Shown: in pieces, positions 373 to 6,244 of the stretch | How the letters are laid out: every line of letters begins with the position of its first letter | How positions within the stretch are numbered: position 1 is the stretch's first letter | Assembly: GCA_963810935.1 (NCBI GenBank) | Contig: CAWEPK010000008.1 | Span: 32,001 to 96,000, forward strand | DNA length: 64,000 nucleotides | DNA from: an uncultured delta proteobacterium | Lineage (GTDB): Bacteria > Desulfobacterota > Syntrophorhabdia > Syntrophorhabdales > WCHB1-27 | Direction of reading: 5' to 3' | Program-made: the position numbers and the translations under genes | Notes under the pieces: model-generated | Database searches by the model: none | Told to the model about the DNA's origin: nothing | The model's input: only the letters and a program-made list of their open reading frames with translations

Positions 373-401
373 TTGACATGACGGGTAAAGGGGTTTAAGT
401 T
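373..401 (+). promoter_or_regulatory. sigma70 promoter of the porin leader
   Basis: TTGACA (373-378), 17 nt spacer, TAAGTT (396-401). Confidence 0.65.
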
Positions 402-433
402 TAAGAAAATTTGGGTAGGAAGGTGTGTGCGCA

Positions 434-517
434 ATGGAAGACGACCCTGGCGGTCATATACAACTCGGTTGGAGCGGTGGACATGCTGCAGCTTCCGGGT
501 GTCGTCGGACCCTCTGA
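434..517 (+). CDS. putative leader peptide MEDDPGGHIQLGWSGGHAAASGCRRTL (27 aa)
   Basis: ATG with upstream GGAAGG; first 22 nt identical to the leader ORF upstream of mgtA; stop codon lies in a hairpin loop. Confidence 0.7.
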   Translation: MEDDPGGHIQLGWSGGHAAASGCRRTL

Positions 518-725
518 GAGTTCCGACCACTCCCGGTCCGGATAGCGTCTCCTCCGGGAGAGGATCGTATCATGTATTCCCCAAACCACTCTTCTGACTG
601 GCTCCAGCCATAGAAACAAAATATGAATTTGCTGGTATCAGCGATCAACCTGCGGGCAGCATGCCGCTTATCGGCGTGCCGTTCAAGTCTGTGAGATATG
701 CCGTCCGCCCGCAACAGAAGGAGAC

Positions 726-2105
726 GTGGAAGTGCGATTCTGCATTCGCCGGAAGACAGGCTTGTTCATTCTGGCCCTGGGCGCCCTCGCGGCGCTGGCG
801 GCTCCCGGCCTCGTGCGCGCCGCCGACCCCCAGTCCTCCCTTCCCCCCTGGTTCCCCCAGCTCTTAGGCGCACAGGTAAACGGGGTCTACCAGAACTCCC
901 CTTCCTTCCATAGCCCGTACACGGGAGACAAGAGCTTCATCTTCGATCATAGCTTCAAGCAACAGTTGACCCATGTCTACGGCCTCTATTTAGGCTCCCA
1001 GATAACACCTTCACTCCAGGCATACGGTGACTTCGAGATGTTTCGGGGGTCGGGCATAAGCAACGGCATTGGTTTGGGCGGTTTCAGTAATGCGGACGTC
1101 ATAAGGGCAGGGCCTGCCAATTTAGGCCAGGAGCCCTACCTTGCCCGCCTCTATGCCAGATACGTCATCCCCTTATCGAATGCCGTGACGGACCCGGTAG
1201 AGAGGGGCATGGACCAGATACCGGGTAGCCAGGCTGCGGACCGCATAGAGATAAAGGCAGGCAAGCTCGCCCCTACGGACGACTTCGACCAGAACCGCTA
1301 TGCCAATAACGGCCGCACGCAGTTCATGAACTACGACTTTTTATTTAATACGGCCTGGGACTATGCATCCGATACAAGGGGATACTCCATAGGCTTCTCC
1401 GCCGCTCTTGTCCATCCCACGTGGAGGCTTATCTTAGGAAGCTACCAGGAGCCTACATCCAGAAACGGCATGAACCTGGACAATAATATCTCCAAGGCCA
1501 GAGGGGACCAGATGGAGCTTGACCTGGCGCACTGGGAGAAGGGCCCCGTAGTCCGCCTTTTAGCCTTCAGGAACGAAGGGAGGATGGGCGACTACAGGGA
1601 CGCCATCGCCTTAGGTGCATTAACAGGTAACGTACCCGACACCACCCTCAACGGGCGGCCCGGCCACGTCAAGTACGGCTTCGGCTTAAACATAGAGCAG
1701 CCCCTTGCCAATGACGGGGACACGGGCATCTTTGCAAGGTTCGGCTGGGCCAACGGGAATAACTCCAACTGGTCCTATACCGAATCCGACAGGCACGCAA
1801 GCACAGGCGTCCAGATAAGCGGCAAGAACTGGGGCAGGCAGGAGGACCAGGCAGGTCTGGCCTTCGGCCTGAACGGCATCACGTCCTCCCATCAGCACTA
1901 CCTCCAGCAGGGAGGCATAGGCATGCTCGTAGGGGACGGGACGCTGAACTACGGCCTGGAGCAGGTGACGGAGGCCTACTACAGGATACAGGTAGGCAGG
2001 TACGTGCAGATAAGCCCCGACTTCCAGTACATCTGGAACCCTGCCTACAACAAAGACAGGGGGCCGGTGCAGGTCTACGGGATGAGGATGAGGGTGTACT
2101 ACTAA
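726..2105 (+). CDS. OprB-family outer-membrane porin, MnoP (divalent cation porin)-like
   Basis: Signal peptide; motifs YLARLYARY, FDQNRYAN..RTQFMN, AWDYASDTRGY, C-terminal EAYY...SPDFQYIWNPAYNKDRGP and terminal aromatic residue. Confidence 0.8.
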   Translation: MEVRFCIRRKTGLFILALGALAALAAPGLVRAADPQSSLPPWFPQLLGAQVNGVYQNSPSFHSPYTGDKSFIFDHSFKQQLTHVYGLYLGSQITPSLQAYGDFEMFRGSGISNGIGLGGFSNADVIRAGPANLGQEPYLARLYARYVIPLSNAVTDPVERGMDQIPGSQAADRIEIKAGKLAPTDDFDQNRYANNGRTQFMNYDFLFNTAWDYASDTRGYSIGFSAALVHPTWRLILGSYQEPTSRNGMNLDNNISKARGDQMELDLAHWEKGPVVRLLAFRNEGRMGDYRDAIALGALTGNVPDTTLNGRPGHVKYGFGLNIEQPLANDGDTGIFARFGWANGNNSNWSYTESDRHASTGVQISGKNWGRQEDQAGLAFGLNGITSSHQHYLQQGGIGMLVGDGTLNYGLEQVTEAYYRIQVGRYVQISPDFQYIWNPAYNKDRGPVQVYGMRMRVYY

Positions 2106-2431: not shown

Positions 2432-3241
2432 TTATTTTTTTTGCGCTGCCTTTGAGATAGCTACCCGTATCGCGAGGCAATCGTACACCACACGGTCGGC
2501 CTGGTAGACGACGGTTCCCCGGCTCACTACGCGCCACCCTCCGTTTTCATAAACGCCGTTGGACGCAAGCGCTTCGATGAGGCCGGGTGCGGAATCGAGG
2601 GATTCCACGAGACCGGGGTTCTGGGCAAGGACCACGTATTTCATGCCTGGGGCAGTCACCAGGGTCAGGGGCTCGATCAGAAGGCTCGACAAATCAGGCG
2701 CTACCTCTTCCGCGACAGTGGCCCTGGCCTGGAGCTGGATCATCCTCGCCCTGGTGTCGGGCCCGGCCGTTTCCTTCGCGGAGCTTATGAGATCGAGGAG
2801 GTCGTCCCGGACCTCGTTCAACTCCTTGACAGAGCGCCACTTCTCAGCCCCTTCATAGGCCGTGAGGGCCTTGGCCAGCATGGAGACCTCTCTCAGGTAG
2901 TGGTTCCGCTGGTTCGCGGGCACGAGATACATGGCGATGACAGAGACCGGGACGCCGTCGGGAGCGCCGTAATCGATCCCTGTCGGGCTCCAGCCCACAA
3001 CGCACATCAAGTCTTCTTCGAAGGGCACCCGCGCGTGCGGGCATGCCCAGCCTTTTCCGATTGACGTGTTGAACGAGGTCTCCCTCGACATTACCAGTCC
3101 CACCACATCGGTCCCGGAGGGCACTGACGGGATTGCTTCGAGGATGTGGGCGAGGACGCGCAGGGCGTCATCCTTGTCATTGTCGGGCAGCTCGATCAGC
3201 CTGCCTTCCTGAAGTGCGTCGAGAAGGGTGTCCATAATCAA
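2432..3241 (-). CDS. PTS IIA (PtsN/fructose-mannitol type) domain protein with C-terminal extension
   Basis: RE..FNTSIGKGWACPHAR (phospho-His motif), GIDYGAPDG.PV; overlaps the mgtA stop. Confidence 0.8.
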   Translation of the reverse strand: MIMDTLLDALQEGRLIELPDNDKDDALRVLAHILEAIPSVPSGTDVVGLVMSRETSFNTSIGKGWACPHARVPFEEDLMCVVGWSPTGIDYGAPDGVPVSVIAMYLVPANQRNHYLREVSMLAKALTAYEGAEKWRSVKELNEVRDDLLDLISSAKETAGPDTRARMIQLQARATVAEEVAPDLSSLLIEPLTLVTAPGMKYVVLAQNPGLVESLDSAPGLIEALASNGVYENGGWRVVSRGTVVYQADRVVYDCLAIRVAISKAAQKK

Positions 3242-5955
3242 TAACCTCCGTACCGTTTAAAGAACCACGTTTTGACGAGGTGCGTCAGGGTGGCGTACGA
3301 AAAGAGGAAGAAAGCGATCCATGCCCAATAAATAGGCGGCAAAGGCACAAACCCCAAGGTAGGCGCGAACGACGAATAGGGCAGCCAGGCGCCGATAGCC
3401 ATCACGAGGATCGTCATGAAGGTCATCGGCATGGACGCGTGGCTGCCTATAAAGGGTATCCGGCGGGTCCTGATGATGTGGACTATCAGCGTCTGGGTCA
3501 GAAGGGATTCCACGAACCATCCCGTATGGAAAAGCCTCGCGGCGGCCTCGCCCGCCAAAGGCCCCGCGCCTGCATAGCCCCGGCACCCGAAAAAGAACCA
3601 CATCAGGGCAAAGGTCGCGTAGTCGAAGATCGAGCTAACCGGCCCTATGAACACCATGAAGCGTTTTATATTGGCTATGTTCCACTTGAGTGGTTTTGTG
3701 ATCTGCTCGGGGTCAACGCTGTCTGTCGGTATGCCGGTCTGGGAAAAATCGTAGAGCAGGTTGTTCAGAAGCACCTGTATGGGCAGCATGGGCAGGAAGG
3801 GCAAGAGGTAGCTGGCGCCGACTACGCTGAACATGTTCCCGAAGTTAGAACTTGCTCCCATCCGTATGTATTTCACTATGTTGGCAAAGACCTTCCGGCC
3901 TTCGATGATGCCCTCGGCGAGAATCAGCAGGCTTTTCTCAAGAAGCACGATGTCCGCCGACTCCTTGGCGACATCGACTGCCGAGTCGACTGATATGCCT
4001 ACGTCTGCCGCCCGGAGGGCCGGCGCATCGTTGATCCCGTCTCCCAGGAACCCTACAACGTGCCCGTTAGACCTGAGGTTGCGGACGATCTCCTCCTTTT
4101 GCGTCGGGGTAAGCTTGACGAAGACATCGGTCTCCCGCACGGTCCTGGAGAAGTCCTCTGCCGACATGGCGGATAGCTCCCCGCCTGTAATGATGGTCTC
4201 TGCCAAAAGGTCGACGTCCCTGCACACCTTTTGCGTGACCAGATAGTTGTCCCCGGTCAGCACCTTCACTTTTACGCCTGCCTGGCTCAAAAGGTCCAGC
4301 GCTTCCGCGGCCTCGGATTTCGGAGGGTCGAAAAATGCGATATACCCGAGGAGGATCATCGCCGATTCGTCGCCGGCCGTGAAAATGCTCTTGTCCCTGG
4401 GAAACTCACGGTATGCGATGCCCAGCACCCGGAAGCCGTCCGTGTTGAGCCTGTCGACCTCCTCGAACAGGTCTGCCCGGATCATTGGGATCAGAGGGTA
4501 CACCTCATCGCCGATCTGGTAGTGGGTGCAGCATGCGTAGATTTCCTCTACGGCCCCTTTGCAGATGAGGACGTTGTCGCCCTCGTAATCGACGACGACC
4601 GACATACGGCGACGCTGAAAGTCGAACGGCAGCTCGTCCACGAGGGTGCAGTCCCGCTCCACGTCGAGGTCCGCGTGCTCGAGCACGGCGCGGTCGATCA
4701 GATTGCGAAGGCCCGTCTGGTAATAGCTGTTCAGGTACGCGTAGGTCAGCACGTCGGTGCTCGGATGGCCGATGATGTCGACGCTGCGCTCCAGCACGAC
4801 CTTGTCCTGGGTGAGAGTACCCGTCTTGTCGGTGCAGAGGATGTCGATGGCGCCGAAGTTCTGGATCGAAGGAAGGCGTTTGACGATGACCTTTTCCTTA
4901 GCCATGGCGAGGGCGCCCTTGGCCAGGTTCACCGTTACGATCATGGGCAACATCTCGGGGGTAAGGCCGACCGCGACCGAAAGGCCGAAGAGAAGGGCTT
5001 CCAGCCAATCGCCCTTGGTCATGCCGACGATGAAGAAGACGGCGCAGACCAGGACGGTCATGTACCTGATCATGAGCCAGGTAAAGGAACGGACGCCCTG
5101 GTCGAAGCTAGTTTCTTCCCTCTCCCCCGCCAGCCGCTCGGAGATAGCCCCGAAGATAGTGTGCGCCCCGGTGTTTATCACAAGCCCCCGGGCGGAGCCG
5201 CTGGTGGCCGTGGTGCCGAGAAAACAGGCGTTCGGCAGCTCCAGGGCGGAGTGGCGCGGGACGTCTTCGGCGTCCGCTGTTTTTTCCACCGCCATCGACT
5301 CGCCGGAGAGGGCCGATTGGCTGACAAAAAAGTCTTTCGTCCAGAAGAGGCGCAGGTCTCCGGGGATGAGCGACCCTGCCTGGAGTAGCACCACGTCGCC
5401 GGGCACGACCTCGGATATCCTTATCTCCACCGCAGCCCCGTCTCTGAGTACGACGGTCCGTGACTGCACGCGTTTCCCAAGGGACTCGACGGCACGGTTC
5501 GAGCGGTTGTCAAGGACGTAGGAAAGGCCTACGCTGAGAAGGACCATCGCGCCGACGATGAAAGACGACCTGATCTCGCCGATGACGCCGGAAACAACGG
5601 CTATAACCAGAAGCTGGATAACCAGGGGGCTTTTGCAGCGATGGAGAATGTCTGCAAAAAAACCGACGTGCCGTGTGTGGGAAAGCTCGTTGGGCCCGTA
5701 TTCGTCCAGCCGGCGTTCGGCCTCTTCGCTATTGAGGCCCCCCGGGGTCGTCCCAAGGACCTTTACGGCCTCGGATACAGGCACTACGCAAAGGTCGATG
5801 AGGCGGCGTTCATCCTCCGGGGTATTGCGGTGATTATTGGCCGCTTGAGGGTCGCGCCTGGACTTATTCGAGAGGTTGGTAAATACGCCCTTGTTCGTTT
5901 TGCAGCCTCCGCTCTTCCCCGGGTGCGCGACGGACCCCGAGACAGGCATGAACAA
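3238..5955 (-). CDS. mgtA: Mg2+-transporting P-type ATPase (IIIB); exact start uncertain
   Basis: SGES, AVGLTPEMLP, DKTGTLT, ELPFDF.RRRMSV, GDGINDAP, SSNFGN, NLLYD, TGWFVESLLTQ. Confidence 0.95.
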   Translation of the reverse strand: MFMPVSGSVAHPGKSGGCKTNKGVFTNLSNKSRRDPQAANNHRNTPEDERRLIDLCVVPVSEAVKVLGTTPGGLNSEEAERRLDEYGPNELSHTRHVGFFADILHRCKSPLVIQLLVIAVVSGVIGEIRSSFIVGAMVLLSVGLSYVLDNRSNRAVESLGKRVQSRTVVLRDGAAVEIRISEVVPGDVVLLQAGSLIPGDLRLFWTKDFFVSQSALSGESMAVEKTADAEDVPRHSALELPNACFLGTTATSGSARGLVINTGAHTIFGAISERLAGEREETSFDQGVRSFTWLMIRYMTVLVCAVFFIVGMTKGDWLEALLFGLSVAVGLTPEMLPMIVTVNLAKGALAMAKEKVIVKRLPSIQNFGAIDILCTDKTGTLTQDKVVLERSVDIIGHPSTDVLTYAYLNSYYQTGLRNLIDRAVLEHADLDVERDCTLVDELPFDFQRRRMSVVVDYEGDNVLICKGAVEEIYACCTHYQIGDEVYPLIPMIRADLFEEVDRLNTDGFRVLGIAYREFPRDKSIFTAGDESAMILLGYIAFFDPPKSEAAEALDLLSQAGVKVKVLTGDNYLVTQKVCRDVDLLAETIITGGELSAMSAEDFSRTVRETDVFVKLTPTQKEEIVRNLRSNGHVVGFLGDGINDAPALRAADVGISVDSAVDVAKESADIVLLEKSLLILAEGIIEGRKVFANIVKYIRMGASSNFGNMFSVVGASYLLPFLPMLPIQVLLNNLLYDFSQTGIPTDSVDPEQITKPLKWNIANIKRFMVFIGPVSSIFDYATFALMWFFFGCRGYAGAGPLAGEAAARLFHTGWFVESLLTQTLIVHIIRTRRIPFIGSHASMPMTFMTILVMAIGAWLPYSSFAPTLGFVPLPPIYWAWIAFFLFSYATLTHLVKTWFFKRYGGY

Positions 5956-6092
5956 TGAAACCCCTTGCCGGAAAGGAACTTAACCGGCCGGGAAAATGTT
6001 CTTTACTTCAGCGTCTGTTGCTTATCTGTCTTAGGAGCGAATGAGGAGAGTTTTCCCCTGATGCCGCCCGGGCTCAGGGGGAGATAAGAAGG

Positions 6093-6173
6093 CTAACGAA
6101 TCTTCCCGTAGTGCTGAGGAGGAGCGGCTTCGCTCCGACCAAACCAAGTAGGACCGCCAGGGTCGTCTTCCAT
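6093..6173 (-). CDS. putative MgtL-like leader peptide MEDDPGGPTWFGRSEAAPPQHYGKIR (26 aa)
   Basis: ATG with GGAAAGG RBS, between the promoter and mgtA; acidic-Pro N-terminus; 4 Pro codons. Confidence 0.75.
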   Translation of the reverse strand: MEDDPGGPTWFGRSEAAPPQHYGKIR

Positions 6174-6215: not shown

Positions 6216-6244
6216 ATTCTAATTCATATAAGCTCTTTGGTCAA
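6216..6244 (-). promoter_or_regulatory. sigma70 promoter of the mgtA leader
   Basis: TTGACC, 17 nt, TAGAAT on the minus strand. Confidence 0.75.

Follow-up and report, generated by a model that had tools for sequence, protein, structure and literature searches.

The window analysed here, a 64,000-nt stretch of DNA from an uncultured delta proteobacterium, contains an OprB-family porin gene and an mgtA gene that lie head-on, with the porin on the plus strand and mgtA on the minus strand according to the open reading frame (ORF) list and domain searches. Both genes are preceded by a leader with a short upstream ORF (uORF), and the first 21 nt of the two uORFs are identical, encoding MEDDPGG. 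The question raised by this locus is whether the two leaders are copies of one regulatory switch, what such a switch would sense and how it would act on the gene behind it.

The porin gene (726..2105, +; PF04966, 112.9 bits) starts at GTG 726 or 732, of which 732 is better spaced from an AGGAG. Its annotated relatives carry the name 'carbohydrate porin', and a sequence search found no relative of solved structure. The mgtA gene (3238..5955, -) encodes a Mg2+-translocating P-type ATPase, with a TIGR01524 score of 1064 bits against a cut-off of 611. Its start is uncertain, with TTG 5955, ATG 5949 and ACG 5898 (-) as candidates. The best Shine-Dalgarno sequence (SD) ahead of mgtA, a GGAGG with a 7-nt spacer, points to the ACG (5898-5896, -), which also aligns with the start of MgtA in relatives (MNRGFF, MRKGLF). 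Either the ACG is a non-canonical start, or it is a sequence error, or the real start is ATG 5949 or TTG 5955. A PTS EIIA-domain gene (2432..3241, -; PF00359) overlaps the end of mgtA and is probably co-transcribed with it.

Each leader is about 250-330 nt long and follows a near-consensus sigma-70 promoter. The promoter of the porin leader (TTGACA, 17 nt, TAAGTT; 373..401, +) is absent from the list of the consensus scan, which did find that of the mgtA leader (TTGACC, 17 nt, TAGAAT; 6216..6244, -). The porin-leader uORF (434..517, +) encodes 27 amino acids, MEDDPGGHIQLGWSGGHAAASGCRRTL, and is preceded by an SD-like AGGAAGG (417..423, +), where relatives have AAGGAG. The duplex of this AGGAAGG with an anti-SD motif has an energy of -7.7 kcal/mol. 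The mgtA-leader uORF (6093..6173, -) encodes 26 amino acids, MEDDPGGPTWFGRSEAAPPQHYGKIR. An in-frame ATG lies five codons upstream of it (MERSL-MEDDP; 6188-6174, -) without an SD of its own, and these same codons provide the weak SD of the mgtA uORF. By pattern and by profile, the MEDDPGG uORF has two copies only in the genome. A second small ORF in the porin leader (571-612) was set aside, being absent from the closest relative (L013).

The original prediction listed a long-range pairing and several competing hairpins in both leaders, and all of the listed segments are present, position for position. In the porin leader, segment 1 (GGTTGGAGC; 467..475, +; codons 12-14) can form 9 bp, one of them G-U, with segment 5 (GCTCCAGCC; 601..609, +). 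In the mgtA leader, segment 1 (GGAGCGAA; 6136-6129, -) can form 8 bp with segment 5 (TTCGCTCC; 6041-6034, -) or pair locally with CGCTCC (6126-6121). The stop-codon stem of the porin leader (504..527, +), which holds the uORF stop in its loop, would be the inner part of the same nested fold, called here the ON fold. The noted stems at 530-560 and 6080-6055 are also present, as part of a post-stop hairpin, 3:4, which spans 527..563 (+) in the porin leader and 6055..6081 (-) in the mgtA leader and belongs to the alternative OFF fold.

The fold model as first drawn omitted one helix, 2:4, which is the direct competitor of the post-stop hairpin. Segment 2 (479..488, + in the porin leader; 6122..6128, - in the mgtA leader) can pair in the ON fold with segment 4 (543-552; 6069-6063). 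Since segment 4 is the loop and 3' arm of hairpin 3:4 as well as the partner of segment 2, the two folds are mutually exclusive. The folds also differ in a pyrimidine-rich tract. In the porin leader it runs from 564 to 609 (+), ends in segment 5 and is a candidate Rho loading site, predicted to be buried in ON and open in OFF. The tract of the mgtA leader (6034..6051, -) includes segment 5, and its 5' part would pair in ON with a purine arm (6059-6054). A further small hairpin, P0 (GACC/GGTC), lies within codons 4-8 of the porin uORF (443..455, +) and at 6152..6164 (-) in the mgtA leader.

The two sequences taken singly give no signal. The folding z-scores of the porin and mgtA leaders are -0.25 and +0.18, showing no excess over chance, and an equally long long-range helix occurs in 36 of 300 shuffles of the former and 76 of 300 of the latter (12-25%). 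These values would fit chance stems in a GC-rich leader that the two loci have in common through recent duplication. The pairings gain their meaning because they are conserved across 59 homologous leaders. The element occurs in two families of the class and in front of at least four unrelated gene families, and the helices are kept at a mean column identity of 47%. Conservation therefore largely refutes the chance-stem explanation, which we regard as highly improbable; the noted pairings and the shared leader element are confirmed as real and conserved.

Known RNA families do not account for the region either. Rfam gave no relevant match for the window at the gathering score or at E up to 10, and nothing relevant in 13 related loci. 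Covariance-model searches for M-box (RF00380) and yybP-ykoY, the known riboswitches to be excluded, found neither in the window nor in those 13 loci, and M-box is also without a match genome-wide. Nor did either Rfam setting yield a sequence or structure match to the enterobacterial mgtA leader family (Mg sensor). As first noted, there is no clear U-tract terminator: a scan for terminators gives no site in the two leaders. An attenuator of the intrinsic-terminator type (trpL/hisL) has no counterpart in the window leaders, which lack a terminator hairpin with a U tract.

The homologous leaders come from a class that is presumably Syntrophorhabdia (Desulfobacterota). Pattern searches of class genomes and metagenome contigs gave 72 candidate leaders. 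Nine were dropped, one as truncated and eight for lack of an upstream TTGAC (mostly chance matches), and the 63 that were kept reduce to 59 at <95% identity, which form alignment A2. Most of the 59 have sigma-70-like geometry about 60-70 nt ahead of the uORF, although an upstream TTGAC was also the inclusion filter. A profile search finds the element in 29 of the 96 genomes of the class, namely 18 of the 21 from its own family, 10 of the 69 from another and none of the five from two more, and it extended the pattern set by two places only. Outside the class, the 20 best-looking pattern matches in a 401-genome phylum sample were all false, and the five weak profile matches in 150 genomes all lie within coding sequence. 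A codon-pattern scan of GTDB contigs was discarded; among the matches listed, most are chance, and no range can be derived from them.

The genes behind the leaders point to metal transport. By motif test, the 59 leaders precede 14 mgtA, 26 Nramp-like and 10 porin genes and nine unlabelled genes, one of which is MgtE_N/PRC. Pfam searches of six downstream examples found Nramp, MgtE_N plus PRC, HMA_2 and OprB domains. The Nramp gene is followed by an MgtE_N/PRC-like gene in five of six loci checked, and an Nramp and MgtE-N neighbourhood is the context reported for NrmT Mg2+ transporters (PMC4072509).

Several loci have arrangements of their own. In L005, L180 and L213, leader pairs stand back to back on divergent promoters, with mgtA or Nramp on one side and a porin or porin-like gene on the other; the porin-side peptide is MEGEPGG in L005 and L213. 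In L006, L008, L190, L210, L211, L214 and L333 the leader is followed by a small gene (MTYYIH...; with an HMA_2 domain in L008). In L008 and L333 this gene lies upstream of the porin, and in L006 it reads into the porin. L332 (G010:C3) holds a leader copy in which codon 3 carries an extra base, and the mgtA behind it is frameshifted; this is either a decayed copy or part of an indel-rich contig.

Covariation across the homologous leaders, the check attached to the original prediction, is a real signal, and a modest one once kinship is counted, with few independent events. Helix 1:5 at its fitted register is paired in 86% of cells, above all 60 shuffles (maximum 77.5%), and the paired fraction of 0.86 also exceeds all 60 partner permutations (maximum 82.7%). 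On unfitted MAFFT columns it is 74% paired, with both-side changes in five of eight pairs. Its 11 tree events fall within the 10.9-12.6 of the fitted controls, and a tree-based p of 0.0005 was withdrawn as an artefact of register fitting. The stop-codon stem is 86% paired with both-side changes in seven of eight pairs, and shows five independent tree events against 1.1 expected (p 0.005). Helix 2:4 on A2 is 84% paired with both-side changes in six of eight pairs. Such changes occur in six of seven pairs of lower 3:4, two of five of upper 3:4 and three of six of the local helix 1:2, which has four tree events (p 0.006). The tree events of 2:4 (three, p 0.11), lower 3:4 (three, p 0.17) and upper 3:4 (none) are not significant.

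The cell-based measures lie above all 500 shuffles and, for pairing, above all slid registers. The pair-count measures place the helices at 14/500, 28/500, 216/500 and 244/500, short of the strictest level. When cognate duplexes are compared with non-cognate ones, 1:5 is better than the median in 49 of 59 leaders and 2:4 in only 36. Low covariation would be expected where each segment has two partners, although this is an argument and not a result. GGCGGT (codons 6-7) was also considered as a partner of segment 2 and rejected, since this pairing is no better than shuffles and has a predicted probability of at most 0.14.

The reading frame itself seems to be under selection. The ATG of the uORF is invariant (59/59). 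In the uORF frame, 56 of 59 leaders have their first stop between codons 20 and 30, versus eight and four in the other frames, a comparison of related leaders that carries no test statistic. Codons 2-7 have 16 third-position versus six first- or second-position changes on the tree, a contrast that is inflated by the metagenome rows, which were found with a pattern permitting synonymous change only. D-E swaps make up six of the eight amino-acid changes at codons 2-4, and codons 9-11 have 9-20 changes per column. The frame drifts freely past codon 15 among relatives; therefore, only the start and the length of the uORF would matter. The conserved E-D-D-P places D, E or P at four of the six residues after Met. 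This pattern of conservation supports translation of the uORF.

The start of the uORF is also conserved as RNA. Its first 22 nt hold GAA in 57, CCT in 57 and GGT in 55 of the 59 leaders, codons that make up 35%, 17.5% (of Pro codons) and 9.7% of usage in the genome. The GGT preference is explained by the 4-bp GACC/GGTC hairpin P0, whose four core pairs are almost invariant and are retained in 57-59 of 59 rows. P0 has an energy of -4.8 kcal/mol in 37 of 59 leaders, the sole tolerated change in its stem is a C to T wobble, and the two MEGEPGG variants retain a shifted 3-bp hairpin. The T of CCT lies in the P0 loop, where pairing does not account for it; a codon-specific effect is conceivable.

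Conservation at synonymous sites over these 22 nt and the frame shifts after codon 15 could also be expected if the leader were an RNA-only riboswitch that binds Mg2+ directly, with the reading frame incidental or secondary; direct RNA sensing is described as still debated for mgtA itself (PMC11552253). Such a riboswitch would not call for the conserved SD, the invariant ATG, the stop position in one frame, the third-position bias or the D/E swaps. The consensus fold has only 15 pairs and no conserved multi-helix aptamer core, and the boundary of the predicted switch coincides with a ribosome footprint. Sensing by RNA alone is very unlikely on these points, and a switch driven by the uORF is preferred with high confidence.

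A motif-free look at mgtA loci gave a wider view. Of the 25 highest-ranking mgtA loci in the class, ten have an upstream uORF of the MEDDPGG type, nine one of a longer related type and three a leaderless acidic uORF; one locus has no uORF and two have no upstream DNA. An acidic uORF is thus found in 22 of the 23 top orthologues with upstream DNA, versus none of five weaker paralogues. The longer type (36-46 amino acids, MGDSDGS...EEHDDPGS) has two acidic motifs and occurs upstream of mgtA in L232-L234, L236, L237 and L245-L248, and outside the class in L286. The 3' arm of its post-stop hairpin is the SD-like GAGGTGAA. It has ATGG..GAC......GGC.GTC in common with the MEDDPGG type, and a GACT/AGTC hairpin with the same 3' end as P0.

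In L241, L251 and L254 the acidic uORFs (MGEQDASE, MGESENSEN) begin about 9 nt past the -10 box and look leaderless, and the post-stop hairpin spans the mgtA start region. Elsewhere in the phylum, acidic or proline uORFs were found at five of 12 mgtA loci inspected; those in L282, L291, L292 and L296 (MKENDDQPP, MEIDTQEPPG, MPSDSPDFP) resemble neither the MEDDPGG nor the MGDSDGS type. The acidic-uORF principle seems to be widespread, with the MEDDPGG element as one lineage-specific design.

Constrained folding, with fragment ends taken from the fitted segment 5, predicts how a ribosome on the uORF would act. Blocking nt 1-33 yields 1:5 in 55 of the 59 leaders, 2:4 in 43 of them and the helix between purine arm and tract in 41, and 41% of tract pyrimidines are unpaired. 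When the whole uORF is blocked instead, 55 of the 59 leaders form 3:4 and the tract is 78% unpaired. The purine-arm/tract helix exceeds shuffles in only 11 of 56 leaders. When a 28-nt footprint is moved along fixed 190-nt fragments, the mean probability of 1:5 is 0.72-0.78 with the P-site at codons 1-6, 0.64 at codon 7, 0.40 at codon 8 and 0.04 at codon 9, and that of 3:4 is 0.71-0.89 at codons 12-20. The invariant peptide motif ends where this permissive window of codons 1-7 ends. Together with the comparative data, these predictions support two exclusive folds set by the position of the ribosome, as had been proposed from the two leaders alone.

The ribosome-free fold of both window leaders is the nested fold (0.97 and 0.94); therefore, stalling and drop-off would have the same outcome in them. 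If a single ribosome sits at the stop codon and leaves the RNA upstream of it free, the ON fold is regained at equilibrium (0.54 overall; 0.76 and 0.98 in the window). The OFF fold must therefore be kinetic or transient, or be held by trailing ribosomes.

The output of the switch is less clear than the switch itself. The tract contains more C than G in 58 of 59 leaders and the genome has a rho gene, with which Rho-dependent termination would be compatible. Against it, the tract is about 20-45 nt long, shorter than the optimal rut length of 60-90 nt (PMC12360218). Alternatively, the same switch could act through the main RBS, by pairing with the freed tract, or hairpin 3:4 could serve as a decay signal or a weak intrinsic terminator. 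The favoured partner of the main SD in the OFF fold is close to segment 5 in 29 of the 49 leaders, but SD duplexes exceed shuffles in only five of the 49 (L006, L013, L210, L211, L214), and SD accessibility is nearly equal in the two states (0.34 vs 0.31); these numbers do not support sequestration of the SD as a general output. The main start lies about 50-270 nt beyond segment 5, across a poorly conserved spacer. The hairpin over the mgtA start region in the leaderless type fits RBS control, as does Salmonella mgtQ, which is described as operating in that way (PMC8092293). A U-rich tail (at least five T within 12 nt past hairpin 3:4) follows in 26 of 59 leaders, whereas neither window leader has one. 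Such an output is unlikely, and Rho-dependent termination is preferred.

The proposed mechanism would run as follows. The uORF with its MEDDPGG start would be translated. At low Mg2+ the ribosome may stall or fall apart on this acidic and proline-containing start, by analogy with the EPDP of MgtL. While the ribosome occupies codons 1-7, or once it has left, the leader is predicted to adopt the nested fold (helices 1:5 and 2:4, stop-codon stem, purine-arm/tract helix), for which there is partial support from covariation; the C/U-rich tract would be buried and transcription would continue. At sufficient Mg2+ the ribosome would move past codons 8-20 and strip segments 1 and 2, so that 3:4 is predicted to form and the tract to become single-stranded. 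Rho might then load on the free tract and terminate transcription ahead of the main gene. The genome has genes for rho and bL31, which adjoin on the same strand (G000:C3:65797-67291). Its ettA-like gene (L334; G000:C15:5110-6766) is split over two overlapping frames through either a frameshift or an assembly error.

Work on E. coli provides the background for the second step. Translation of MgtL is reported to abort within MEPDPT, particularly at low Mg2+; clusters of D, E or P within six residues after Met (the IRD criterion) are reported to cause abortion generally, worse at low Mg2+ (10.1101/2021.02.02.429294). EttA is described as acting on MgtL (PMC11282234). Di-acidic starts are described as not invariably destabilising (PMC11282234), a point against the model. 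'DPG' is not among the motifs named in the EF-P/EfpL paper.

It could be asked whether the uORF switch mainly reads a different signal, such as Mn2+ and other divalent metals, or the supply of Pro-tRNA (m1G37/TrmD, EF-P) at CCT. One NrmT-group protein encoded beside an MgtE-N gene is reported to have transported Mn2+ (PMC4072509), and MnoP is an outer-membrane channel for Mn2+ (PMC9334652), a precedent that implies no kinship to the OprB-family porin. Against a Mn2+ signal, mgtA scores above the Mg2+-ATPase cut-off, MgtE-N genes are in the same regulon and yybP-ykoY has no match. The near-fixed CCT at codon 5, with its base in the P0 loop, and the TrmD-dependent control of mgtL described in PMC6335274 would suit a Pro-tRNA signal, yet there is only one invariant Pro and the TrmD route is itself a Mg2+ read-out. 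A different main signal is thus doubtful. Given a uORF-driven switch, Mg2+ is probably what is read, by analogy with MgtL.

The complete chain, in which both leaders are copies of one ribosome-coupled attenuator of the MgtL kind that turns Mg2+-uptake genes on at low Mg2+ and acts through Rho-dependent termination, has about an even chance of being correct. A bolder version, which we consider unlikely as a whole, is a two-part sensor: P0 (nt 10-22 of the uORF) would sit at the mRNA entry of the ribosome while E-D-D-P is made and hold the ribosome for a Mg2+-dependent collapse. One element would then run a multi-operon Mg2+ regulon without M-box, in which the OprB-family porin would be an outer-membrane Mg2+ channel and not a sugar porin. 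P0 is retained even at synonymous sites and is also found in the MGDSDGS-type leaders.

The literature found places ribosome-based Mg2+ sensing in enteric bacteria only, and searches for comparable leaders returned enteric or unrelated systems only. A description of the present element was not among them; supplementary motif tables or subscription papers could list it. Here the same logic would operate with unrelated sequence, as a regulon device in uncultured anaerobes. The element marks the 'carbohydrate porin', the Nramp/MgtE-N pair and the small HMA-domain gene as likely Mg2+-uptake genes. The 59 natural variants show which residues and helices are kept; therefore, the peptide, the Pro codon and the RNA could be separated as the Mg2+ sensor with few mutants.

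Among known systems, the mgtA leader of Salmonella and E. coli is the closest in kind. Judged by sequence, the window resembles an MgtL-type attenuator in that the gene of a Mg2+ importer has a uORF in its 5' leader, and the start of the uORF is acidic with proline in both cases (EPDP in MgtL, EDDP here). MgtL has 17 codons and is shorter and Pro-rich, whereas the present uORFs have 21-28 codons and one invariant Pro. The helix layout differs, the element here is reused before several operons and it has no Rfam match. The mgtA gene there is PhoP-dependent, in contrast to the near-consensus sigma-70 promoter here, which is judged on sigma-70 geometry alone. Both systems have two exclusive folds, predicted in the present case. 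As described in the MgtL studies, a Rho site stays accessible when mgtL is translated in full and is closed upon drop-off (PMC11282234, PMC12360218, PMC11552253, PMC6335274; on the folds also 10.1101/2021.02.02.429294), and a Rho site would be the counterpart here.

The CorL/corA leader of Salmonella and E. coli is reported to have a constitutive promoter and an OFF stem flanked by pyrimidine-rich rut regions that are buried in ON (PMC11552253), which resembles the present layout. CorL has fewer acidic and Pro residues according to the same paper, and is set apart here by Rfam and motif only. The MgtQ/mgtB intergenic switch of Salmonella is similar in that acidic residues of its uORF shift the RNA between alternative stems, upstream of a gene for a Mg2+ P-type ATPase (PMC8092293). 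However, MgtQ has 8 amino acids, is intergenic and governs the RBS, and SD control is unsupported here as a general output. M-box (RF00380) and yybP-ykoY precede the same kinds of gene (mgtA, mgtE, nrmT; PMC4072509), but they are metal-binding aptamers without a uORF and do not match here. The best reading of the sequences and fold predictions is that the element may work like MgtL and CorL without homology to MgtL.
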